NCBI GenBank assembly: GCA_016183365.1
Contig: JACPES010000003.1
Location: 269,051 to 333,050 of the forward strand
Length of the DNA: 64,000 bases
Direction: 5' to 3'
DNA from: Candidatus Collierbacteria bacterium
Lineage (GTDB): Bacteria; Patescibacteriota; Microgenomatia; UBA1400; JACPES01
Made by a program: the position numbers and the translations under genes. Within the stretch, counting starts at the first letter, position 1; each line of letters begins with the position of its first letter. Positions 4,334 through 49,532 of the stretch are shown piece after piece. The notes below the pieces were generated by a model. The model ran no database searches. It saw nothing but the letters and a program-made list of their open reading frames with translations, and was not told the origin of the DNA.

Positions 4334-4672
4334 ATGGAACAAGTCTATAAAATTCTAGCCCAGATAATCGCCGATACCTCGTCTCCGGATGAAGCCCAAG
4401 CTCTGATATCCGATTTATTCTCCGAAACCGAGAGGCAGGGGATTGCTAAAAGATTAGCCGTAACCTTGATGTTGTCTAATGGCCGGAGTTACAACGAAAT
4501 AAAAAAACAATTGGGGGTCAGCTCGGCCACCATCGCCAGAATTCAGGAATCGCTGGATAAACCCGGAATTAAAATAGCCATTTCAAAAGTTAAAACCGAC
4601 GAATGGGCCGGCAAATTGGCCAATAAATTCGCCGGGGCTTTAGATAAACTTCTTGCCAAACCCACTCCCTGA
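4334..4672 (+). CDS. YerC/YecD family TrpR-like DNA-binding protein
   Basis: 112 aa carrying the ERQGIAKRLAVTLMLSNGRSYNEIKKQLGVSSATIARIQESL helix-turn-helix signature of the TrpR-related YerC family. Confidence 0.75.
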   Translation: MEQVYKILAQIIADTSSPDEAQALISDLFSETERQGIAKRLAVTLMLSNGRSYNEIKKQLGVSSATIARIQESLDKPGIKIAISKVKTDEWAGKLANKFAGALDKLLAKPTP

Positions 4673-4843
4673 TTTTTCCTATTTCCCTCAGTCAAACGAA
4701 ATCTTCCTGTGTCTTTCTTCAAAAACAATTCTAAATTTCTCAAAGACCGAGTCTCGACCCAAGAAATTAACTGATACATGATATTCAAAAGAAAAAACTA
4801 TCGGACAAACTAAATTTTTACTTGCGACTGCAATTTTTAAGCT

Positions 4844-5221
4844 GTGGATATATCCTTTGATTCGACCACCAACTCCGCCAAGATATATTTTTTTCCACTA
4901 AGATTTTATGAATCCCTGCCTGGCTTTAAATGCGTAGCCAACTATCCGGATTTTGTAATGTTTTCCGCCGGAAATTTCTATTTGGGATTAACCACTCATA
5001 AAGGGAAAACGTCGAAAAATTTGTTCAGTGAATTTAATATTGGTTTGGACCATTTTTCTTTTGAGGTAAAATCAAAGAAAGATTTGGAAAACGCGCTGGA
5101 GTTTTTTGATAAAAACAAAATTCCGCACGGAAATATCGATGAACTGTCAAATGGCTTGTTGATTCTGGTATTCCGCGAACCTGATAACATTCAGCTAGAG
5201 CTTTGCTGTAAAGAACAATGA
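4844..5221 (+). CDS. Hypothetical protein, possibly VOC/glyoxalase-like fold
   Basis: 125-aa ORF immediately upstream of metG, with a 4-nt overlap. Weak glyoxalase-like pattern only. Confidence 0.35.
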   Translation: MDISFDSTTNSAKIYFFPLRFYESLPGFKCVANYPDFVMFSAGNFYLGLTTHKGKTSKNLFSEFNIGLDHFSFEVKSKKDLENALEFFDKNKIPHGNIDELSNGLLILVFREPDNIQLELCCKEQ

Positions 5222-6642
5222 GAAAGAAGTTTTATATCACCACTACCATCCCTTACGTTAACGCCGATCCGCATATCGGGTTCGCCTTAGAAATTGTACA
5301 AGCCGATGTTCTGGCAAGATTTCATCGGCTTTTTGGTGATGAAATATTTTTTAATACTGGGACTGACGAGCACGGTCAAAAGATCTATCAAAAAGCATTA
5401 GAAGCAGGAAAAGATCCACAAAAGTATTGCGACGAATACGCCGCTAAATTCGACAATTTAAAATCTTCCCTTAATTTGAGCTACACCAATTTTATCCGGA
5501 CTACCGATCCCCACCATAAAAAATCCGCCCAAGAATTTTGGAAGCTGTGCGCTGCCAAAGGTGATATTTATAAGGCTAATTATAAAGTGAAATATTGTGT
5601 TGGCTGCGAGCTGGAAAAAACCGATTCAGAATTGACTGAAGGTATTTGTCCGATCCATCCCAATCTTAAGTTGGAGATTAGAGAAGAGGAAAACTATTTT
5701 TTCAAATGGTCGGGATACAAAGATAAACTCTTAAATCTCTATAAAGATAATCCCGAATTTGTGGTTCCTGATTTTAGGTATAACGAACTAAAAAAGTTTG
5801 TTACGTCCGGTCTGCAGGATTTTAGTATCTCTAGATTAAAAGAAAAAATGCCATGGGGAGTTGATGTCCCGGATGATCCCAAGCACGTTATGTATGTTTG
5901 GTTTGACGCCTTAGTAAATTATATTTCCGCTACCGGCTGGCCGGAAGACGAAAAAAGTTTCAGCGCTTGGTGGCCGGGAATTCAGATTGCCGGGAAAGAC
6001 AATCTAAGGCAGCAATCGGCCATGTGGCAAGCAATGTTGATGTCAGCCGGACTTCCCAATACAAAACAAATCATGATTCATGGTTTCATTACCAGCGGTG
6101 GACAGAAAATGAGTAAAAGTTTGGGTAATGTGGTAAGCCCATATGATTTGGTTGACAAATACGGAACCGATGCGACAAGATATTATCTTTTGGCAAAAAT
6201 TAATCCATTTGAAGACGGCGATTTCACTTATGCTAAGTTTGAGGAAGCTTACAATTCCGACCTCGCCAACGGACTGGGAAATTTAGTCCAACGGGTAGCA
6301 AAACTCTGTGAATTAAAGAATCTTGTTTTATCTTTTACTAATCCTTTTGATCCTTCTTTTCCATCTATTTCCTCCCATATCGAAAACTTTGAATTTAACT
6401 TAGCCATAGAGGAATTATGGCGGGAATTCAGCGATCTCGACGCCAAAATTAATCTTGACAAGCCATGGAAAAAATCTGACGAGGAAGCGGGTAAAGACTT
6501 AAAGGTATATCTTGAGAAAATCCTGCAATTAACGTTGCCGTTGAGTATTTTTCTTCCCTCAACCGCCGCTAAAATCCAACAGATTTTCGCAGGCCCAAAA
6601 ATTTCCGCCCCCTCCAGCCCCTTGTTTCCACGCATCGGGTAA
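5218..6642 (+). CDS. metG: Methionine--tRNA ligase (short form, no C-terminal tRNA-binding domain)
   Basis: Class I aaRS motifs: PYVNADPHIGFALE (HIGH-like) and GGQKMSKSLGNVV (KMSKS). Overall MetRS-like. Confidence 0.88.
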   Translation: MRKKFYITTTIPYVNADPHIGFALEIVQADVLARFHRLFGDEIFFNTGTDEHGQKIYQKALEAGKDPQKYCDEYAAKFDNLKSSLNLSYTNFIRTTDPHHKKSAQEFWKLCAAKGDIYKANYKVKYCVGCELEKTDSELTEGICPIHPNLKLEIREEENYFFKWSGYKDKLLNLYKDNPEFVVPDFRYNELKKFVTSGLQDFSISRLKEKMPWGVDVPDDPKHVMYVWFDALVNYISATGWPEDEKSFSAWWPGIQIAGKDNLRQQSAMWQAMLMSAGLPNTKQIMIHGFITSGGQKMSKSLGNVVSPYDLVDKYGTDATRYYLLAKINPFEDGDFTYAKFEEAYNSDLANGLGNLVQRVAKLCELKNLVLSFTNPFDPSFPSISSHIENFEFNLAIEELWREFSDLDAKINLDKPWKKSDEEAGKDLKVYLEKILQLTLPLSIFLPSTAAKIQQIFAGPKISAPSSPLFPRIG

Positions 6643-6651
6643 AATATACCC

Positions 6652-8154
6652 ATGGACTCAATAAAACGCTACTTCCTCCGCCACCCGATCCGCACCCGGA
6701 GGGCTTTGGAAATCCTGCCGGGGTCGGTTAGTTGGTTTCTCATTTTATTTCCAATCTGGGGGTCGTTTCTCATTCCAGAAATCGTCGCGATTTACATCGT
6801 TACATTTACGGTATATTGGCTGTATAGGTCTCTCTCTGTGGCTGGTTTTGCGCTCGTCGGACACTTTAAGATCGAGGCCAGTAAAAGGTTTGACTGGGTA
6901 GGAGACCTCGCGTTCTTCCCGGATTGGCAGCGGATTCGTCACATCGTCGTTTTGCCGACGTACAAAGAGCCTTTGGGAACCTTGCAACGATCCTTAAAAG
7001 GCATTGCGAACCAAACATTTCCACTGAAACGAATTCACGTCATTCTTTCATTTGAGGTTCGCGAGGGAGATGCGGTGAAAGAAAAAGCGAACAAGCTTCG
7101 AGAAGAATTTGGAAACCGGTTCGGCACGTTTGACGTTACCTTCCACCCGGATATTCCGGGAGAAGTGAAGGGGAAATCGAGTAATTCTGCGTGGGCAGCT
7201 ACGTCTGTCGTTGAGCCGAAACTCATCAGGAAAGGCATTATCGATGCGAAGTACGCGACTATAACGAGCATGGACGCGGACGCGCAACTCCACCAGAATT
7301 ACCTTGCGGCCCTCGCGTACAACTTTCTTGACCATCCGAAACGGTATGAGCGTTTTTGGCAACCAAGTATCATGTTCTACAACAACATCTGGCGGATTCC
7401 TGCTCCGATTCGGGCTTTGGTTACCGTGTGGGGAGTGATCCACATGTATCTTCTGGTCCGTCGGGACAGGCTCATCAACTTTTCGACATATTCTCTCTCG
7501 CTACAGCTGCTCCGATCATTCGGATATTGGGATACGAACGTGATTCCGGAGGATTACCGTGTCTTCTTTAAGGCATTTTTCGCAACGAAAGGAAGAGTGG
7601 AGGTCGAACCGATTTTCTTACCGGTCTCGATGGATGCAGCCCAGTCTACGACGTTTTGGAGAACGATGGTCAACCAGTACGAACAAGTGAAGCGGTGGGC
7701 GTGGGGAGTTGCGGACGACCAGTACGTCATCCGGCAGACGGTCCTGACCGCAGGTTTACCGTTCTGGGACAAGATCTTGCGGGTGGTCAGGCTCATGGAG
7801 GATCATTTCCTCTGGCCGGTTAACTGGTTTGCGATCACCATTGGCGCCTTGCTCCCGCCGCTGTTGAATCCGACATTTTCAAGGACGGTGATCGGGAAGA
7901 CGCTTCCCCAAGTAAGCTCCGGGATTCTCACTGTTTCGCTTGTTGCGATTATCGTTATCTTATTCATTGACGCTCGGCAACGGCCGAAGCGGCCGGCAAA
8001 TGTTTCTCGGTTTCGGCGGCTTCTTCAACCCCTTGAGTTTTTTCTGCTTCCGGTTGTGGGATTTTTTTTCAACGCTCTCCCCGGTCTTGACGCCCACACC
8101 AGATTGATGATGGGGCGATATTTGGAATACCGGGTAACGGAAAAAGTCGAGTAA
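6652..8154 (+). CDS. Processive family-2 glycosyltransferase (cellulose/chitin-synthase-like), integral membrane
   Basis: N-terminal TM helices, a DxD-type MDADAQ motif, QVKRWAWG (the Q-x-x-R-W motif of processive GT2) and C-terminal TM helices. Noticeably higher G+C than the flanking genes. Confidence 0.7.
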   Translation: MDSIKRYFLRHPIRTRRALEILPGSVSWFLILFPIWGSFLIPEIVAIYIVTFTVYWLYRSLSVAGFALVGHFKIEASKRFDWVGDLAFFPDWQRIRHIVVLPTYKEPLGTLQRSLKGIANQTFPLKRIHVILSFEVREGDAVKEKANKLREEFGNRFGTFDVTFHPDIPGEVKGKSSNSAWAATSVVEPKLIRKGIIDAKYATITSMDADAQLHQNYLAALAYNFLDHPKRYERFWQPSIMFYNNIWRIPAPIRALVTVWGVIHMYLLVRRDRLINFSTYSLSLQLLRSFGYWDTNVIPEDYRVFFKAFFATKGRVEVEPIFLPVSMDAAQSTTFWRTMVNQYEQVKRWAWGVADDQYVIRQTVLTAGLPFWDKILRVVRLMEDHFLWPVNWFAITIGALLPPLLNPTFSRTVIGKTLPQVSSGILTVSLVAIIVILFIDARQRPKRPANVSRFRRLLQPLEFFLLPVVGFFFNALPGLDAHTRLMMGRYLEYRVTEKVE

Positions 8155-10468: not shown

Positions 10469-10500
10469 TTAACTCTCCGCGGCCGCGTAGAGAAAAGAGC
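10469..10500 (+). promoter_or_regulatory. Conserved CCGCGGCCGCG-containing motif directly upstream of the argS ATG
   Basis: TTAACTCTCCGCGGCCGCGTAGAGAAAAGAGC. A near-identical copy lies at 44137..44170 upstream of another ATG, and related copies lie in the 44899/45897 direct repeats. Confidence 0.45.
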
Positions 10501-42850: not shown

Positions 42851-43882
42851 ATGAACATATTTATCACCGGCGGAGCCGGATTTATCGGTACCCACTCCGC
42901 GAATTTCTATCTGAAAGCCGGTAACAAGATTACAATATTTGATAATTTTTCCCGAAAAGGGACTAGAGAAAATGTTAAATGGCTGGAGAAAAAATATGGA
43001 GTAGGGAGCATGGAAGTTATTGAAGGAGATATACGGGATTTCGATAAGCTTAAACAGTCAATTGTCGGCAATGATGTAGTTATTCATTTGGCCGGTCAAG
43101 TGGCGGTGACGACTTCAGTTACTAACCCAAGAGAGGATTTTGAAATTAACGCTTTGGGCACGTTTAACGTTTTGGAATCCGTTCGGCTTCTTACTCCTGA
43201 CTCTATACTCCTATTCGCTTCGACCAATAAAGTTTACGGCGGGATGGAAGAAATAAAAATTATCAAAAAAGGCAAAAGGTATGTTTACCGCGATTTGCCG
43301 GGCGGGATTTCTGAAGCCCAGAATTTGGATTTCCATTCTCCGTATGGATGCAGCAAGGGGACCGCGGACCAATATGTCCGGGATTATCACCGGATTTATG
43401 GTTTGAAAACCGTGGTTTTCCGTCAGAGTTGTATCTTCGGCACTCATCAATTCGGAATTGAAGATCAAGGATGGGTGAGCTGGTTTACCATCGCTTCTGT
43501 TTTGGGAAAACCGATAACCGTCTATGGCGACGGGATGCAGGTTCGAGACGTATTGTTCGTCGAGGATTTAGTTAAAGCCTATGATTTGGCGATAAAAAAA
43601 ATTGACAAAACAGCCGGAAAGATCTATAACGTCGGCGGCGGACCAAAGTTTACTCTTTCTTTACTTGAATTATTGGCTCTTCTCGAGAAAAAACTCGGCA
43701 AAAAAATTCCATACAGTTCTGCCGACTGGCGCCCCGGCGACCAGCCGGTCTATGTCAGCAGTATTTCAAAGATAAAAAAAGAATTGGGTTGGGAACCACA
43801 AATCTCCGTCAATCAGGGAACCGGCAGAATGATTGACTGGATTATCAAAGAAAAAGATCTAATAGAAAAAGCACTGAATTAA
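42851..43882 (+). CDS. NAD-dependent epimerase/dehydratase (CDP-paratose 2-epimerase / UDP-sugar epimerase-like)
   Basis: MNIFITGGAGFIGTH (Rossmann) and YGCSKGTADQY (SDR YxxxK). Confidence 0.75.
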   Translation: MNIFITGGAGFIGTHSANFYLKAGNKITIFDNFSRKGTRENVKWLEKKYGVGSMEVIEGDIRDFDKLKQSIVGNDVVIHLAGQVAVTTSVTNPREDFEINALGTFNVLESVRLLTPDSILLFASTNKVYGGMEEIKIIKKGKRYVYRDLPGGISEAQNLDFHSPYGCSKGTADQYVRDYHRIYGLKTVVFRQSCIFGTHQFGIEDQGWVSWFTIASVLGKPITVYGDGMQVRDVLFVEDLVKAYDLAIKKIDKTAGKIYNVGGGPKFTLSLLELLALLEKKLGKKIPYSSADWRPGDQPVYVSSISKIKKELGWEPQISVNQGTGRMIDWIIKEKDLIEKALN

Positions 43883-43906
43883 ATTTATGAAGGGAAAAAT
43901 TGCGGT

Positions 43907-44130
43907 AACGGGGTGGAAAGATTGGATGAATGTTAAGGTTCTGCAAAAGGTAGTTATTGTGGACGAGATAGATAATATTTTGCTTCAAATTCTCATTTTT
44001 GACTATTTGCTATCAGGCTAAAGTTAAAGGAATTTCTCCAAATGTGGTTTTAAGCCAAGAATATGCCGAATACCGCTGGCTCTCAAAATCAGAAGCGCTA
44101 TCGCTCAATTCAATTCCTATCTTTTTAATC
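43907..44130 (+). pseudogene. Possible NUDIX hydrolase remnant (frameshifted fragments)
   Basis: Frame 1: MKGKIAVTGWKDWMNVKVLQKVVIVDEIDNILLQIL. Another frame: …SQEYAEYRWLSKSEALSLNSIPI, which is a NUDIX C-terminal-like pattern. No intact ORF. Weak evidence. Confidence 0.25.
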
Positions 44131-44136
44131 TTTGCT

Positions 44137-44170
44137 TTTAACTCTACGCGGCCGCGGATAGAAAAGAGCA
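44137..44170 (+). promoter_or_regulatory. Second copy of the TTAACTCT-CGCGGCCGCG-TAGAAAAGAGCA motif, abutting the ATG at 44172
   Basis: Near-identical to 10469..10500 upstream of argS. Confidence 0.45.
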
Positions 44171-44171
44171 T

Positions 44172-44873
44172 ATGACTTATCAAAAACTCCAAAAAGAACT
44201 GTTTGATCGGATTGAAATTCAGGCTAAAATCGGCAATTCTTCAAATACTCTAGTTGCAATGCGAAATTTTGATAATGACAATAGCCGGTGTTTAACCTCA
44301 GTATTTTTTCTGTCTCAAACTAAGGTTGTGTCAGAAATACAAAAATTTACAGAAGAACTACAGGTTGCTGATAACAGGCAATATTATTATCCAGTCTTTT
44401 CGCTTCATATAACTATCCAAAACATTAGAAATGAAAACATTCAGCCTTTATTCAATCAAGAAGATATTGATATGACCAAGCAGGTTTTTGCAAAAATCAT
44501 TCCGAAACATAAACCAATTAAATGCCATTTGAAAGGGTTATTTGAATTGCCGACAAGCATATCTATTAGAGGATATACAGATGAATCTCTGAAAGATTTG
44601 GTTTTAGACTTAAAGAGAGAACTGATTTCTGTTGGAGTTCCTGACAATAAAAAATATGCTTCCGATTCGATATTTTTCTGCAACAGCACCATCTGTCGTT
44701 ACCAAGTTCAACCTAATGATAAATTTTTCGAGATTGTCAGACGGAACAAGAATCGGGATTTCGATGCCGTTGACATCAATGAGGTCAGTTTGATGACTAC
44801 AAATGCGGTTGCTGATCAGAAATACACCAACATTATTAACAGTATCCCCTTAGCTTCCCCTAATTTCTTTTAG
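44172..44873 (+). CDS. Hypothetical protein (single HxTx motif reminiscent of 2H phosphoesterases)
   Basis: 233 aa. …YYYPVFSLHITIQNI… has one H-x-T-x motif, and a second could not be found, so no family is assigned. Confidence 0.5.
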   Translation: MTYQKLQKELFDRIEIQAKIGNSSNTLVAMRNFDNDNSRCLTSVFFLSQTKVVSEIQKFTEELQVADNRQYYYPVFSLHITIQNIRNENIQPLFNQEDIDMTKQVFAKIIPKHKPIKCHLKGLFELPTSISIRGYTDESLKDLVLDLKRELISVGVPDNKKYASDSIFFCNSTICRYQVQPNDKFFEIVRRNKNRDFDAVDINEVSLMTTNAVADQKYTNIINSIPLASPNFF

Positions 44874-44898
44874 TTCCATTATTTTCGCTTGACTACTA

Positions 44899-44980
44899 TT
44901 CTTTTCCATCCGCGGCCGCGGACTCAAAAGAGTAAAAGTTAATCTTAACTTACAGCGGCCGCGGGGAGTTATTGACATTA
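44899..44980 (+). repeat. 82-bp direct repeat, copy 1: CCGCGGCCGCGG - 33 nt AT-rich - CGGCCGCGG - TTATTGACA
   Basis: Nearly identical (1-2 mismatches) to 45897..45978. Ends in a TTGACA -35-like hexamer, about 58 nt upstream of the paaX-like ATG. Confidence 0.8.
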
Positions 44981-45034
44981 GTTATTCTTTTAATTAGAGT
45001 AATTTGATTAGAGTAATAAATTCAAACCTTTTTT

Positions 45035-45865
45035 ATGGCACGTAGTCGAACTACATCCAAATTGATTTCTAGGCTTACCGGTGAGTTGGCCGTTACGACC
45101 TTGGATTTCGTGGTACTATCTGCTGCTTTGGCCGGTGGGATGATTCTATACGGACCTAGTGGAAAAGATTTATACGCCAGCCAAAAAACCCAAAGAGCTC
45201 TGAAAATGACGGGATTAATGTACAAAAAATGGGACGAATCGGCTTTCCGCCGTGCAGTTGGTCGGGCAGCCGGCGAAGGATTGGTTAAACGAATTACAGA
45301 TGGCTTTAAATTGACAGGGTCAGGTAAAAAGCGGTTGAAGGAATTATTACCGTCGTATAAACAACCCAAACCTTGGGATGAAAAATTGTGGTTGGTGACC
45401 TATGACATTCCGGAAGACAAGCGTTACATTCGTGATCGCTTTCGCAATTGGCTGTTTGAAATCGGCTGTCGAATGATCCAGGAATCAGTATGGCTATCAG
45501 TCAAAGATCCAAAACCTTGGATTAAAGATTCGATAGCATCAATGGAAAAGGGAAATATCATCGTATCGTGTTTGGGTAAGGATGGAAGTATCGGGAATGA
45601 GAATTTAAACGAACTGATTTATCGCGTGTTTGAATTAAAACGATTGAACAAGGCATATAAAAGTTGGTTGCAAGCAGTAAATCAACAAAGTAGTAAATCA
45701 ACAGTATTGAGTTTAGGTTTTAGATTTTTATCTCTTTTGCGTCAAGATCCAATGTTTCCGAAAGATCTACTGCCTCAAGATTGGGCGGGCAACAAAGCCA
45801 GGAGAATCTTCGAGACAGAAATCGAGTCTGAAATGGGTGCGATCAAAATATACTTGCAAAAATAA
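45035..45865 (+). CDS. PaaX-family transcriptional regulator
   Basis: WDEKLWLVTYDIPEDKRYIRDRFRNWLFEIGCRMIQESVWLS and DPMFPKDLLPQDWAGNKARRIF match the PaaX middle and C-terminal domains (compare E. coli PaaX WDGKWLLLL… / DPLLPEELLPAHWAGHTARQL). Confidence 0.8.
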   Translation: MARSRTTSKLISRLTGELAVTTLDFVVLSAALAGGMILYGPSGKDLYASQKTQRALKMTGLMYKKWDESAFRRAVGRAAGEGLVKRITDGFKLTGSGKKRLKELLPSYKQPKPWDEKLWLVTYDIPEDKRYIRDRFRNWLFEIGCRMIQESVWLSVKDPKPWIKDSIASMEKGNIIVSCLGKDGSIGNENLNELIYRVFELKRLNKAYKSWLQAVNQQSSKSTVLSLGFRFLSLLRQDPMFPKDLLPQDWAGNKARRIFETEIESEMGAIKIYLQK

Positions 45866-45896
45866 TTTCTCCTAAAACTTGATTGAGAAAAATTTG

Positions 45897-45978
45897 TTCT
45901 TTTCCATCCGCGGCCGCGGACTCAAAAGAGTAAAAGTTAATCTTAACTTCCAGCGGCCGCGGGGAGTTATTGACACTA
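45897..45978 (+). repeat. 82-bp direct repeat, copy 2 (promoter/operator-like module upstream of larE)
   Basis: See copy 1. TTGACA at 45970-45975 lies about 64 nt upstream of the larE ATG. Confidence 0.8.
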
Positions 45979-46038
45979 ATACTAATTAATAGAATTCATC
46001 AAAAGGGATTTATCAGTCGTTGTATACTCACTGTTGTC

Positions 46039-46851
46039 ATGATGCAGGAAAGCCGTTCATTGAAACAAAAAGAAACACTATTGAAAGAGCTATTTTCGGA
46101 AATGAGGAGCGTTGTCGTTGCCCTATCTGCTGGAGTGGATTCATCGCTTACGCTTGCGGTGGCGCATGATGTATTAAAAGAAAAAGCAGTTGCAGCAGTT
46201 GCGATATCTCCCAGTCTATCTCAGGACAATGTAAAACTTGCAAGAAGAGTCGCGAAACTTATTGGGGCTGAGCTTATAGAAATTGAAACTCATGAGGTCG
46301 AGGATCCGGAGTACCAGAAGAATAATCCGCTGCGATGCTATTTTTGTAAGCATATTGTCTATTCGGAGTTGAAAAAAATCGCGGAGCAAAAACACGCTTT
46401 TCTTGTCGATGGTTTTAACACTGACGATACTGCGGAAACGAGACCAGGCATGCGGGCAGCAAAAGAAGAACGAGTCAGACATCCGCTTTTTGAAGCAGGA
46501 TTAACCAAAAAAGACGTGCGGTCTCTGGCTGGAAAATACGGGTTGCCGAACTGGAATAAGGCTGCCGATGCGTGTTTATCGTCCCGATTCTTAACCGGCA
46601 TTCCGGTAAATCCCCGCTTGGTGAAGCGCATTGAAGGACTGGAGTCGGTAGTGCGCCGCATCCTACAATTGGGAGCAGAACATACATTACGCGTCCGGCA
46701 TCTTGGAGATCAAGAAGCTCGAGTTGAAGTCAATTCTGAGTTGTTTCCAATTCCGGTCAGACTTGAGAAAAAAGTGAAAAATGTTGTCGAGTCATTTGGA
46801 TATCGCGAGATTTCATTTGCCGTTTACAGATGGGGGAGTGCCAGTGGTTAA
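46039..46851 (+). CDS. larE: LarE-family PP-loop ATP pyrophosphatase (sacrificial sulfur transferase for nickel-pincer cofactor synthesis)
   Basis: PP-loop ALSAGVDSS and the LarE-typical NPLRCYFCK motif. About 270 aa from the ATG at 46039. Higher G+C than surrounding genes. Confidence 0.75.
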   Translation: MMQESRSLKQKETLLKELFSEMRSVVVALSAGVDSSLTLAVAHDVLKEKAVAAVAISPSLSQDNVKLARRVAKLIGAELIEIETHEVEDPEYQKNNPLRCYFCKHIVYSELKKIAEQKHAFLVDGFNTDDTAETRPGMRAAKEERVRHPLFEAGLTKKDVRSLAGKYGLPNWNKAADACLSSRFLTGIPVNPRLVKRIEGLESVVRRILQLGAEHTLRVRHLGDQEARVEVNSELFPIPVRLEKKVKNVVESFGYREISFAVYRWGSASG

Positions 46852-47373
46852 ACGAGTCGTTAATATCATTGAAAATCTCGGTTTTGCTCAAATTGATCAC
46901 GGCCGTTTCGAACGGACCGGAATTCCCGAAGTGGTTTTTTGCGAAGGGAAAACGCCGGAACAGGTTGCGGAGATTTTCTCAAGGCTGGCCGCGACCAGTG
47001 GATTCGCCATGGCGACACGGGTGAAGCCCCGACACCAGAAAGTTATTCAAAAGAAAGTTCCCGAAACCGTATGGCATGAACGGGCTGGCATTATGACTAT
47101 GTTGTAGTTGTGACCGCGGGGACAGGAGATATTTCGGTTGCGGAAGAGGCAAAGGTGACATTAGAGTTTTTTGGCATTCGGGCAGAGAAACTTTGCTGAC
47201 TTCTTGTCTGGTTATTGGCGTCCCGACGGCAATCGGATACGGGATGGGGCGAGGCGGAAAAACGGCTCTTCGCACAATGCTCGATTCTTGTGTTCCCGGG
47301 ATGGTGGCAGTTAATATTGACAACGGATTCGGAGCCGCGTGCGCGGTGATGAGAATGTGGAAAAACTAGAAAA
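46781..47373 (+). pseudogene. larB: larB (pyridinium-3,5-biscarboxylic acid mononucleotide synthase), frameshifted with an internal deletion
   Basis: LarB-like pieces lie in three different frames: …VVNIIENLGFAQIDHGRFERTGIPEVVFCEGKTPEQV…ATRV; [24 protein letters not shown]; [48 protein letters not shown]. The conserved DVGVAGIHRL…IVVAGMEGALP segment is missing. Confidence 0.65.
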
Positions 47374-47375
47374 TC

Positions 47376-47546
47376 ATGAAAATAGGGTATTTCGATTGTA
47401 TCGGCGGGGCAAGCGGCGACATGATTTTAGGGTCTTTGATTGATGTCGGCCTCCCTATCGCGGTTTTGAAAAGAGAACTTGAAAAACTTCCAATTCAAGG
47501 TTGGACATTAAACGCAAAAAATCCGAGTAAAAGTGGCAAGATATGA
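47376..47546 (+). pseudogene. larC: larC (nickel insertion protein), N-terminal fragment only
   Basis: MKIGYFDCIGGASGDMILGSLIDVGLPIAVLKRELEKLPIQGWTLNAKNPSKSGKI, then stop. LarC normally exceeds 400 aa and the remainder is absent or frameshifted. Confidence 0.55.
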
Positions 47547-47626
47547 AGGAAAAATTGTTCGCGCCTTGCCGGAATACGATGATTGCAAAAAAACTGCAGC
47601 GGAGAAAAAAGTGTCGATTCAAACAG

Positions 47627-48700
47627 TTATTGATAGTGTAAGAGATATCGTTCTTTCCACATTATTCCATAATTAGTTTTCATCATACGCCTAACGTTTT
47701 TGATGCCTACAGTTGCGTACCAGATGTCGTAATACACTTTAGCCGCCCAACGGAGAAGGAATAAAAATGGCGATTTAACGTCGAACATCAGCCATTCCAT
47801 CCATTTTCCGCGATGCCTTAACCACATTTCAGTAGCCATGACGATATTCGACTGATTAGCCTGTTCGAATTTGAACTGGGGAAGTTTATCTCCGACAACT
47901 TCGGTCTTCATAGATCCAACTCCGACTTGTTGTGCAAAAGTAATATGCTTGACGGTTTTCGGGTCTATCCCCATAACTCTTGAGGCTACCGTATCCAACG
48001 CCACCCGGTCCGGCGAAGCAAAAATATATCCGATTTTACGAGGTTTTCCGGTTTTAGGGCCTTTGCCCTCCATTCCAAACAAGCCGTCCATTAAAGCAAA
48101 AGTAATTTTGCCTTTGAAGAAATTGTTGACGTCGGCGATGGCCTGATGCAGAACCATATGGAAATTATGCCGCAGGTCATGGATGCATCCCCATTGATTT
48201 TTTAAAGCTCCGGTCATTGAGGAATACGAATGAGTTTTTAAAACCGGCATGGTGATGATCGTATCGGCATCAAGGAGCACTTTGCTGATTTTGAGATGAT
48301 GGAGAACCAGCGCTTTTTCAAATGACACAACACGAAATTCCGTGTGAGAAAGATTGACAACGGTCGCATCATACTTTTTTACCATATCTTCAATTCCCTG
48401 AACTTTAAACGATATATCCGCCCGCATAATTGCGGCTGTATCGGTATCCACGATAGTAATTTTTTTCGGTCGGTATTTTTTAGACGCTTTGATTACTTTT
48501 AAAACACCTTCAATCACAATTGGAGTAGTGGTGCAGGAAGGATAAATCGTGTCCCAAACCACATTGACTTTTAAAACCAAATTTTTCCCCTTCATGTATT
48601 TTTCCCATTGGGCCAATATCATGGCTTTTTCGACAGCCTTAAAGACGACTTGAGGATTAGTAGATTTATCGTCGACTTTGACGCAAGAAACGAGAGACAC
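47627..48700 (-). CDS. DUF362-family protein, possibly LarA-like (NPN-cofactor enzyme superfamily)
   Basis: 357 aa. The PVLKTHSYSSMTGALKN segment resembles the LarA PHFFAGFSGGRK region around the cofactor-binding lysine. Assignment is tentative, but adjacency to larE/B/C supports it. Confidence 0.5.
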   Translation of the reverse strand: MSLVSCVKVDDKSTNPQVVFKAVEKAMILAQWEKYMKGKNLVLKVNVVWDTIYPSCTTTPIVIEGVLKVIKASKKYRPKKITIVDTDTAAIMRADISFKVQGIEDMVKKYDATVVNLSHTEFRVVSFEKALVLHHLKISKVLLDADTIITMPVLKTHSYSSMTGALKNQWGCIHDLRHNFHMVLHQAIADVNNFFKGKITFALMDGLFGMEGKGPKTGKPRKIGYIFASPDRVALDTVASRVMGIDPKTVKHITFAQQVGVGSMKTEVVGDKLPQFKFEQANQSNIVMATEMWLRHRGKWMEWLMFDVKSPFLFLLRWAAKVYYDIWYATVGIKNVRRMMKTNYGIMWKERYLLHYQ

Positions 48701-48776
48701 AATAATAAATGGTTATAATGGTTAATAAATGGTTTAAATGATTGAGATCTTAATTTTTTTAGCCATTTTAACCATT

Positions 48777-49532
48777 CTAACCATTTTGACCATTTTGTCT
48801 ATATTCCGGGTGTCCGGTTAATTTTTTCATTCTTTCTGTTATCATGATTCTTAAATATTTCGGCACCGACTGAAAAATTGTTAATTTTGATTGTCCTTCA
48901 CCGCGGCGCTCGTATTGGATGGGAATTTCACCGACTTTGTATCCGTGGAGGTGAAATTTTATCGGGATTTCGGTGTGAATTTCAAACCAACCGCTTTTTA
49001 AGTTTAATTTTTTAAGAGCGGACGCTCTCATGATTCTATAGCCGCTGCTGGCATCATGAAGCGGATAACCGGTAGTAAGTTTGGCGGCTAAAACGCAAGC
49101 TTGCGATAATAATAGACGAAAAGCCGGACCGTCCATCGATCCTCCGGAAACGAAGCGGCTGCCGATAACCATGTCATAGCCTTTGTTTGCGGCGGAGATA
49201 AAATCCGGAATTTCCTCCGGTCGGTGAGATAGGTCGGTATCCATGGTGATAATCCATTTGCCGCGGGCAACGGCAAATCCGGCTCTTTCGGCGTTCCCCG
49301 GTCCATTATTGGAATAGCGGTGAATGACTTTAATCTGTGGGAATTCATCCGATAGTTTGTCCAGAATTTTCCCGGTATTATCCGAGCTGACGTCATCAAT
49401 GGCGATAATTTCATAAGAAAGTCGGTTGCTTGTGGCCATTTTGATAATTCTGGATATAAAAGAGAGGATATTTCCTTCTTCATTGTGAGCCGGAGTAACT
49501 ATGGAATATTTAATGTCTTTAGTCTTTGGCAT
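48777..49532 (-). CDS. Family-2 glycosyltransferase (DPM-synthase-like)
   Basis: YSIVTPAHNEEGNI…IIAIDDVSSDNT…TMDTDLSHRP. The C-terminus is encoded by CCATTTT-type tandem repeats. Confidence 0.78.
   Translation of the reverse strand: MPKTKDIKYSIVTPAHNEEGNILSFISRIIKMATSNRLSYEIIAIDDVSSDNTGKILDKLSDEFPQIKVIHRYSNNGPGNAERAGFAVARGKWIITMDTDLSHRPEEIPDFISAANKGYDMVIGSRFVSGGSMDGPAFRLLLSQACVLAAKLTTGYPLHDASSGYRIMRASALKKLNLKSGWFEIHTEIPIKFHLHGYKVGEIPIQYERRGEGQSKLTIFQSVPKYLRIMITERMKKLTGHPEYRQNGQNG

Follow-up and report, generated by a model that had tools for sequence, protein, structure and literature searches.

A recently broken larE-larB-larC operon beside a LarA-fold DUF362 gene in a bacterium of the candidate phyla radiation

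A stretch of 64 kb from Candidatus Collierbacteria (the window) holds, at positions 46039-47676, what is in all probability (about 85%, from examination of the whole window) a recently inactivated larE-larB-larC remnant, next to a DUF362 gene that is most likely independent of it. The break in the operon is ordinary recent pseudogenisation, or gene loss. In the synthesis of the nickel-pincer cofactor (NPN), LarB carboxylates and hydrolyses NaAD, LarE adds two sulfurs, and LarC inserts nickel. LarA is the only classical user of the cofactor. The first-pass annotation had described a decaying lar cluster in a reduced-genome host, and both parts of that description stand: larE is intact while larB and larC are broken, and the host belongs to the candidate phyla radiation (CPR). 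It is a groundwater bacterium with a tiny genome. The features of the lar locus are as follows.

46039-46851, plus strand: larE, intact, 270 aa; ATP-dependent sulfur transferase of nickel-pincer cofactor synthesis, CXXC-C ([4Fe-4S]) type
46844-47369, plus strand: larB pseudogene in three frames (46844-47107, 47098-47196, 47196-47369)
47096/47097, plus strand: larB deletion junction 1, 37 nt lost relative to L102 11059-11095, frame shifted
47194/47195, plus strand: larB deletion junction 2, 118 nt lost relative to L102 11194-11311, frame shifted
47376-47676, plus strand: larC pseudogene, with an N-terminal remnant (47376-47520) and a C-terminal remnant (47521-47676) in different frames
47520/47521, plus strand: larC deletion junction, 842 nt lost relative to L102 11638-12479, out of frame and inside an A-run
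47627-48700, minus strand: DUF362 gene, intact, 357 aa; LarA-like fold, PF04015
48777-49532, minus strand: GT2 glycosyltransferase, 251 aa, PF00535 at 112 bits; invariant upstream partner of the DUF362 gene

Profile searches, which the first pass had called for, place larE with TIGR00268, larB with NF033503, larC with PF01969, and the neighbour with PF04015 (DUF362). The larE product scores 249.1 bits against the TIGR00268 equivalog (cutoff 150) over profile positions 2-256 of 259, and its motifs are in place, so the earlier reading of an intact gene with a PP-loop is borne out. The CXXC-C cysteines mark the [4Fe-4S] class of LarE, the Thermotoga maritima type, and SGGXDS is the ATP-binding motif of the PP-loop (PMC9283937). 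The window protein is of this kind, with an SGGXDS-like PP-loop, SAGVDSS (S30-A-G32-V-D34-S35), and the cysteines C100-x-x-C103 and C179. The PP-loop residues S30, G32, D34, and S35 and all three cysteines are invariant across the clade alignment. The first glycine of SGGXDS is alanine here, as in most of the clade; six members (P0103, P0105, P0109-P0112) have glycine. Every clade-invariant residue is retained, with the sole exception of R265W. NCBI lists the same protein as MBI2309831.1; it shares 93% of its amino acids with the LarE of L102, L103, and L104, and the gene has a dN/dS of 0.065 against L102.

The state of larB is very different. Its start codon, a GTG at 46844, overlaps the stop of larE, and its three pieces (as segments 46781/46844-47107, 47101-47196, and 47193-47369) match NF033503 at positions 1-69, 82-112, and 153-206, with positions 70-81 and 113-152 missing. 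The pieces score 58.9, 31.5, and 73.9 bits, each below the cutoff of 175, and thus larB fails as a single full-model LarB reading frame. In a tblastn search with the intact LarB of L011, they correspond to residues 5-85, 94-128, and 169-224; the third is annotated at NCBI as the hypothetical protein MBI2309833.1. The first deletion, placed by gapped alignment with L102 and giving the same gap against L014, has a CTAT microhomology at its junction. The second takes out the conserved core (YDVGVAGIDRL...VAGMDGACPVV, from the alignment with L102), a segment that is present in the intact LarB sequences P0213 and P0214. These findings confirm the earlier view of a larB split over three frames without its conserved central segment.

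For larC, the first-pass annotation had seen a 56-codon stub. The gene is indeed broken after its N-terminal part, but it is not a mere truncation, since a C-terminal remnant is kept at 47533-47676; the lesion is therefore an internal deletion of about 280 codons. The reading frame at 47376-47546 matches positions 2-51 of PF01969 (Ni_insertion; E 2e-11), and the one at 47533-47676 matches positions 347-374 of 375 (E 5e-4), so that larC fails as a full-length single reading frame over the approximately 375 positions of the model. With the LarC of L011 as the tblastn query, the remnants correspond to residues 1-54 and 343-386, and BLAST alignments break at the same points against L102, L103, L104, and L014.

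One concern with lesions of this kind is that they could be artefacts of assembly or sequencing that hide intact genes. The window does come from a metagenome-assembled genome (MAG), and a related contig, L014, is clearly indel-noisy. However, separate Logan read-set assemblies, six in all (SRR12113420, SRR12113383, SRR12113384, SRR12113385, SRR12113426, and SRR12113428), match the window at 100% identity through every lar junction, over spans that begin at 45920, 46452, or 46529 and run to 48800. The runs are separate but belong to a single sequencing project, and the assemblies therefore sample the same population. Their identity through all three junctions means that the lesions are not assembly error, which bears on the earlier call to check the frameshift sites. 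In addition, deletions of 37, 118, and 842 nt are unlike homopolymer slips, and the NCBI annotation of the MAG lists the fragments as separate small proteins. An artefact is thus barely credible. Programmed frameshifting, or split but functional genes, was also considered and rejected, because the DNA for the LarB core and for about 280 of the roughly 381 LarC codons is no longer there.

The first pass had suggested comparison with relatives, and intact larBCE was found there. At the same locus, larE-larB-larC is intact in L102/L103/L104 and in L105, converging on the same DUF362-GT2 pair. In all, at least four lineages related to the window carry the operon here (L102-L104, L105, L013, and L014). 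A further CPR context, L011/L012, has an intact larEBC as well, and L105 was the sole CPR-clade locus returned by a metagenome scan. The decay in the window is lineage-specific and recent. The larB and larC remnants have a pooled dN/dS of 0.20, compared with 0.065 for larE, their divergence is still mostly of the purifying-selection type, and extra substitutions are few. A relative-rate test on the remnants did not show significantly more changes on the branch of the window (21 vs 13), nor did it for the genes separately (larB 11 vs 7, larC 10 vs 6). Purifying-type divergence without a significant excess on this branch indicates that inactivation was recent.

This timing bears on the survival of larE, which might have been kept for a function of its own, such as another ATP-dependent thiolation, in an operon that is being remodelled and is not dying. 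The gene is fully intact under a low dN/dS with one unusual substitution, and larE survives in every eroded relative: in the window, which has lost larB and larC, and in L013, a differently eroded copy in which larB is cleanly absent and larE and larC are intact. It could be that these two genes are of value to L013 without larB. Yet so little has changed even in the dead remnants that an intact larE of 813 nt is expected by chance over so short a time. LarE is not known to act outside NPN synthesis, which counts against a separate role, and TIGR00268 is an equivalog model of which the window protein is a typical member. Retention for a separate role is distinctly improbable.

The origin of the operon was also questioned. 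The first-pass annotation had noted that the region is richer in G+C than its surroundings and had taken this as a sign of horizontal acquisition followed by decay. The first part is correct: G+C in 46039-47676 is 46.1%, whereas the window averages 41.2% (sd 2.5%), and an excess of about 2 sd puts the region among the highest 4% of stretches of its length. The excess does not extend to third codon positions, where larE (GC3 0.40) equals the rest of the window and the genome average. An excess so modest, and absent at third positions, leaves a recent foreign origin unsupported. The dS of the lar genes between the window and L102 is 0.5-0.6, two to four times below the 1.0-2.3 of the flanks (where dS is near saturation), and gene identities are discordant along the locus; together these observations point to a segment with a separate history. 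The nearest non-CPR LarE proteins, at 42-47%, are those of Chloroflexota, and a GTDB scan started from the CPR LarE alignment picked up zero CPR loci among the representatives, its best hit (47%) again being from Chloroflexota. All of this could suit a foreign island. Nonetheless, because at least four related lineages carry the operon at this position, it is ancestral to the clade, not a recent import, and any transfer into the CPR would be older than the roughly 55-70% LarE divergence within the clade. The GT2 and DUF362 genes are mosaic as well, which fits homologous recombination within the clade and not distant import; the data do show mosaic recombination among close relatives at the lar locus. 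A recently acquired island that then decayed is quite unlikely, and the earlier claim of acquisition is not sustained.

Upstream of larE lie the following features.

42851-43882, plus strand: NAD-dependent sugar epimerase/dehydratase (SDR); Pfam Epimerase and GDP_Man_Dehyd, with GGAGFIG and YGCSK motifs
43883-45936, plus strand: insertion of about 2.07 kb, lineage-specific, separating larE from the epimerase
44131-44168, 44899-44980, and 45897-45978: hairpin repeats of the GCGGCCGC palindrome, which bound and split the insertion
44172-44873: insertion gene, 2H/AKAP7-like
45035-45865: insertion gene, PaaX-like with a Cas2-like domain

The epimerase lies directly upstream of larE in L013, L014/L104, and L105; L013, L014, L104, and L105 all lack the insertion. 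Folding of the repeats gives -34.7 kcal/mol (z -4.6), and of the six Logan contigs, four stop at 45920, within one of the repeats. An Rfam scan of 43500-49000 gave no match. The epimerase was set aside as a possible NPN client, with its canonical GxxGxxG and YxxxK NAD motifs.

On the other side, the DUF362 gene converges on the larC remnant and shares the 50 nt of its 3' end with it, and the whole lar locus sits within a large cell-envelope glycan locus. The constant companion of the DUF362 gene is the GT2 gene: the pair is found in every orthologue context examined, while the convergent neighbour downstream of it varies (methyltransferase, BacA, APH, PRTase, KTI12-like, or lar). Within NCBIfam, the GT2 protein most resembles transferases of polyprenyl-phosphate sugars (ArnC, PgfS, AglJ, and dolichyl-P hexose transferase), without reaching the cutoff of any. 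The arrangement recalls the ArnC/ArnD-type pairs, in which a polyprenyl-phosphate sugar synthase is accompanied by a modifier of the lipid-linked sugar. As there, the ArnC-like GT2 gene is tightly coupled to the gene of a second enzyme, often by overlapping reading frames; here, that enzyme has a LarA fold and not a deformylase fold. The analogy may suggest a role for the pair and is no more than an inference.

The DUF362 protein itself matches PF04015 at 150.6 bits (threshold 24) over its full length (profile positions 2-199 of 200), as is common to this uncharacterised family, and scores 75.6 against the NCBIfam "Npun_F2552 family" equivalog, whose cutoff is 500. Within the wider DUF362 family, it belongs to a subfamily specific to the CPR, named in several CPR groups, whose members always have a GT2 partner of about 245-254 aa. 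Its relation to the LarA superfamily (PF09861; 5HUQ, 7S91, 9EIA, 9Q3J, and 4NAR), which comprises NPN-dependent 2-hydroxyacid racemases and epimerases, is that of a distant homologue sharing the fold. Compared with that superfamily, it has just 11-15% sequence identity, is shorter (357 aa against about 420), adds an aromatic and basic helical extension at the C-terminus, and has its gene coupled to that of a GT2. It is not a member of PF09861/DUF2088, since Pfam gives PF04015 and no Lar_N match. PDB sequence searches with the protein as query (phmmer, and hmmsearch with a 38-sequence profile) did not return LarA, so the kinship is visible only by fold comparison.

The earlier description of the neighbour as LarA-like is upheld for the fold and for the Lys/His motif. 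The H-x5-[ST]-G-[GA]-x-K segment reported before is present, from H157 to K167 (H157-SYSSM-T163-G164-A165-L166-K167). Alignment with hhalign to Lactiplantibacillus plantarum LarA (a reference sequence 100% identical to 5HUQ) pairs H157 with His174, T163-G-A165 with S180-G-G182, and the invariant K167 with the NPN-tethering Lys184, of which it would be the counterpart. The key residues of LarA are the catalytic His108 and His174, Asp72 (ribose), and Arg75 (phosphate and substrate) (PMC12611868). D50 aligns with Asp72 in this DUF362 subfamily only, and counterparts of His108 and Arg75 are absent, the former aligning with A88 and the latter with a non-basic residue. The nickel-coordinating His200 of LarA lies 16 residues after Lys184, and an invariant histidine, H181, lies 14 residues after K167; an extended hhalign alignment (global and low-mact runs), of low confidence there, did not pair the two.

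Does this protein use the cofactor? As an NPN-dependent client other than LarA, it would have been supplied by the adjacent operon, and in this genome it would now be apo or inactive, use scavenged cofactor, or have switched cofactor. Such a role would agree with the paired tether, glycine, and histidine residues, with the position of H181, and with the intact larEBC that converges on DUF362-GT2 in L102-L104 and L105. Furthermore, no LarA (DUF2088) was found in the 64-kb window by an HMM that, being built on just three solved LarA sequences, is possibly insensitive, and many larBCE-bearing genomes lack LarA while new client families are still emerging (PMC13524815). A functional link may thus exist, given adjacency in four or five lineages, the LarA fold, the Lys/His motif, and the absence of DUF2088 from the window. 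One could go further and propose that DUF362 proteins, or at least the GT2-coupled ones of the CPR, are a second LarA-fold NPN family, with K167 as tether, that epimerises a polyprenyl-phosphate-linked sugar made by the GT2 and for which the lar genes were recruited; this is somewhat more doubtful still.

Other observations speak against it. The adjacency is convergent and not co-transcribed, and it is limited to one syntenic CPR sub-lineage, which makes it effectively a single evolutionary event. The closest orthologue outside the lar-bearing sub-lineage (P0002, 88%) has no lar gene nearby, nor do five other contexts, and the GTDB scan turned up no close LarE in CPR species representatives, though the DUF362 subfamily is found in several CPR groups. 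HMM scans of 159 non-CPR LarE loci found no DUF362 within 8-10 kb (and were negative for LarA too), and the H-x5-[ST]-G-[GA]-x-K pattern had zero matches in the open reading frames of 80 LarE loci. His108 and Arg75 lack counterparts, and the equivalence of H181 with His200 is unproven. The DUF362 gene is under strong purifying selection (dN/dS 0.037) although larB and larC are dead. On present evidence, use of the nickel-pincer cofactor by this DUF362 protein is unlikely. The first pass had offered a choice between a non-functional LarA-like enzyme and a scavenged cofactor; this omits the best-supported option, a DUF362 enzyme without need for NPN, which follows from the invariant GT2 partner, the six lar-free contexts, and the strong constraint.

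The preferred reading, of a recently broken lar operon beside an independent DUF362 gene, can be put together as follows. In the ancestor of the lineage, the order was epimerase, larE, larB, and larC, converging on DUF362 and GT2. In this genome, three out-of-frame deletions took away the LarB core and about 280 LarC codons. Because all three enzymes are required and larB and larC are destroyed, NPN is presumably no longer made in this genome, as judged from the 64-kb window of a contig of about 588 kb; a second larB and larC, intact, might lie elsewhere in the genome. Most likely, larE is still intact for want of time for damage, and the DUF362 enzyme probably modifies the lipid-linked sugar made by the GT2, independently of the lar genes.

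Among known systems, the L. plantarum lar operon and the T. maritima [4Fe-4S] LarE offer the closest parallels, with the same three families in a compact overlapping operon. The window differs from known larBCE systems in its order (larE-larB-larC), in having no adjacent larA (DUF2088), in its CPR host and glycan-locus setting, and in its larB and larC pseudogenes. Non-LarA users of the cofactor are actively sought by the field (PMC13524815). One of them is NphT, an AKR-like protein with a TIM-barrel fold whose cofactor binding was shown by experiment (Nat Chem 2026, PMC13524815). The logic of its discovery was the same, namely a LarA-less larBCE cluster beside a candidate with a Lys/His pair; the DUF362 candidate differs in having the LarA fold, in a linkage that is convergent and narrow in lineage, and in being a putative client.

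The locus shows a clean and well-dated gene loss in an ultra-small CPR genome, with exact deletion junctions, and a cofactor pathway caught between intact, as in the sister lineage, and gone. It also shows that genes for nickel-pincer biosynthesis exist in Patescibacteria; in the literature searched, "lactate racemase" was never combined with "candidate phyla radiation," and the papers listed there on larB, larC, or larE made no mention of Patescibacteria. The lead to follow is the intact larEBC of relatives without LarA, beside a LarA-fold DUF362 protein with a tether lysine, inside a glycan-synthesis locus. If DUF362 does use NPN, the repeated erosion of lar, in the window and in L013, would mark lineages that are abandoning or replacing that envelope modification. 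Were the link between lar and DUF362 true, the large uncharacterised family PF04015 would gain a cofactor, and envelope glycans would come within the reach of nickel-pincer chemistry.

The lesions in larB and larC, two genes for nickel-pincer cofactor biosynthesis, are real, since six sequencing runs, each assembled on its own, gave contigs that encode the exact DUF362 protein and match the window with 100% identity through all of the lesions (6 of 6). Assembly error, a concern of the first-pass annotation, can thus be set aside. The features of the cluster are as follows, with the sizes and positions of the deletions taken from an alignment of the window to L102, a related groundwater locus.

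46039-46851, + strand: larE, full-length LarE (TIGR00268, 249 bits against a cutoff of 150)
before 47097: first larB deletion, 37 nt, with CTAT microhomology
before 47195: second larB deletion, 118 nt, with loss of the conserved YDVGVAG...AGMDGA core
before 47521: larC deletion, 842 nt, with an A-run at the junction
47627-48700, - strand: DUF362 gene, convergent to the lar genes (PF04015 full-length, 150.6 bits)
48777-49532, - strand: GT2, the glycosyltransferase partner of DUF362

None of the three deletion sizes is divisible by three, and larB and larC together have lost about 1 kb out of roughly 1.83 kb. Profile searches find larB downstream of larE as three pieces in three frames (NF033503 positions 1-69, 82-112 and 153-206), the third of which is called as a separate 58-aa hypothetical protein in the NCBI annotation of the MAG. 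In larC, two pieces remain (PF01969 positions 2-51 and 347-374), and the gene is internally deleted rather than merely truncated. The first-pass annotation had described an intact larE, a larB broken over three frames without its conserved core and a larC stub; the profile searches and ORF listing uphold these family assignments, but the second larC piece had been missed. LarE itself is identical to NCBI protein MBI2309831.1 (Candidatus Collierbacteria bacterium, 588-kb contig) and has the PP-loop and the CXXC-C cysteines that define the [4Fe-4S] LarE class (PMC9283937). R265W is the sole otherwise-invariant site at which it departs from its 16 closest relatives.

Comparison with relatives, as had been proposed, finds larE-larB-larC intact or open at several loci. 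In L105 (a JGI contig of 163 kb), the epimerase, larE, larB and larC are followed by convergent DUF362 and GT2 genes, all intact. In L102, L103 and L104 (Hainich groundwater, ENA), whose LarE is 93% identical to that of the window, larE and larB (226 aa) are intact, larC is an open frame of 381 codons, and the operon converges on DUF362-GT2 in the same arrangement as in the window. Two JGI loci from a different CPR context (L011, 7111-12661; L012, 40-3340) carry intact genes of 273, 228 and 390 aa after murL, of the UDP-MurNAc-L-Ala-L-Glu epimerase family, and a MurD-like ligase, with the operon beginning one base past the ligase. Envelope biosynthesis is here, for a second time, the setting of CPR lar genes, and LarA was not seen in the available stretch around them.

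Other states of erosion are also found. In L013 (LarE 77% identical; 4626-6661), larB is cleanly missing: the larE stop directly overlaps the larC start, with both genes at full length (274 and 404 aa). An inserted hydrolase gene stands ahead of DUF362. The absence of larB may be another route to pathway loss, or may hint at a use for larE and larC on their own. The upstream SDR epimerase of L102 (9447-10000) has lost most of its length and is down to about 260 nt, a gene loss at this locus separate from the lar decay. The lar locus is in flux throughout the lineage. L014 (ENA ERZ1286166 contig_802) is a 99-kb contig syntenic with the window, with nearly all genes in fragments of 40-200 aa, the usual result of indel errors in uncorrected long reads, and its gene calls are not readable as pseudogenes.

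In the window, a 2.07-kb insertion (43883-45936), missing from all relatives compared, splits the epimerase from larE. Its two genes code for a 2H/AKAP7-like phosphoesterase and a PaaX-like protein with a Cas2-like domain, and each is followed by an 82-nt repeat. The copies are 98% identical, with two GCGGCCGC-centred palindromes apiece, and form a stable predicted hairpin (-34.7 kcal/mol, z -4.6).

44131-44168, 44899-44980 and 45897-45978: hairpin repeats with GCGGCCGC palindromes, bounding the insertion

A partial GCGGCCGC-type palindrome also lies at 10477-10488, and Rfam gives no match in 43500-49000. Four of six short-read assemblies break within the 82-nt repeat, which suggests further copies elsewhere in the genome.

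The first-pass annotation had favored horizontal acquisition followed by decay. However, the lar operon did not enter this genome recently, because several related lineages have it at the same position. The G+C excess of the region is real (46.1% against 41.2%) but small, at about 2 sd, and is absent at third codon positions (larE GC3 = 0.40). In a scan of 185,579 GTDB species representatives, the nearest non-CPR LarE proteins are from Chloroflexota (42-47%), and CPR genomes are absent among the best 80 loci. The strongest compositional outlier of the window is a 503-codon ORF at 6643-8151 (G+C 0.51, GC3 0.60 against about 0.41), for which a foreign origin is much more plausible than for the lar region.

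The lar segment has a history of its own, because the window and L102 differ in it by a dS of 0.5-0.6, lower than in six flanking genes (1.0-2.3), and because identities are discordant: LarE pairs the window with L102 (93%, against 81% to L105), DUF362 pairs L102 with L105 (95%, against 89%), and GT2 pairs the window with L105. Across 35500-57000, compared with L102, L105, L013 and L014, dS runs from 0.5 to >2 between the same two genomes. The whole surface-glycan locus bears the signature of a recombination mosaic among close relatives.

Judged by substitution patterns, inactivation of larB and larC is recent, because the remnants are far from neutral and branch differences are not significant. 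Against L102, dN/dS is raised in the pooled larB and larC remnants (0.20, 0.13-0.30) and is 0.065 in larE (95% interval 0.035-0.105). When L011 and L013 serve as outgroups in a relative-rate test, changes on the window and L102 branches number 5 and 6 in larE, 11 and 7 in the larB remnant, and 10 and 6 in the larC remnant, with no significant difference for any of them. That larE is intact calls for no special explanation; conceivably, it could be kept through a separate function of its own.

The gene converging on the lar remnants had been called LarA-like, which stands for fold and motif but not for family, the protein being a full-length PF04015 member. DUF362 and DUF2088, the family of LarA, share Pfam clan CL0471 (PMC11770544). 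An AlphaFold model built with 38 homologues as input has a pLDDT of 95, and Foldseek agrees on a LarA-like fold. In a profile-profile alignment to the L. plantarum LarA sequence, verified against 5HUQ, H157 pairs with LarA His174, T163-G-A165 with S180-G-G182, and the invariant K167 with Lys184, the cofactor tether. LarA His108 and Arg75 have no DUF362 counterpart in this alignment, and H181, which is also invariant, is a possible but uncertain counterpart of LarA His200.

The DUF362 protein could be a non-LarA client of the nickel-pincer cofactor, an unlikely reading that is retained because its fold and lysine match LarA, LarA is not seen in the window, and the same neighborhood logic still reveals new client families (PMC13524815). 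DUF362 genes are absent within 8-10 kb of LarE at all 159 non-CPR loci, and in the window, DUF362 is under strong constraint (dN/dS = 0.037) despite dead larB and larC. DUF362 is preceded, in each orthologue context examined, by a GT2 gene of about 245-254 aa, and the two reading frames often overlap; in several relatives (L007, L008, L009 and L097), GT2 and DUF362 either overlap or lie almost end to end. The genes converging on DUF362 vary and include methyltransferase, BacA, APH, phosphoribosyltransferase, KTI12-like, hydrolase and lar genes. GT2 best resembles polyprenyl-phosphate sugar transferases, and the surrounding 20 kb hold a flippase, several GT2s, YfhO/PTPS-like membrane proteins and an SDR epimerase. 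On the favored reading, DUF362 acts with GT2 on a lipid-linked sugar, independent of the lar genes, and the lar-DUF362 adjacency would go back to a single event in the history of one CPR sub-lineage. In the window, the GT2-DUF362 spacer and final GT2 codons (48701-48803) consist of short tandem repeats, TAATAAATGGT three times and TTTTAACCA 4.4 times.

The observation on the lar cluster is correct and now well documented: a known pathway has recently decayed to pseudogenes in a CPR genome. As biology this is ordinary, and it brings a modestly interesting, testable side-lead on DUF362.
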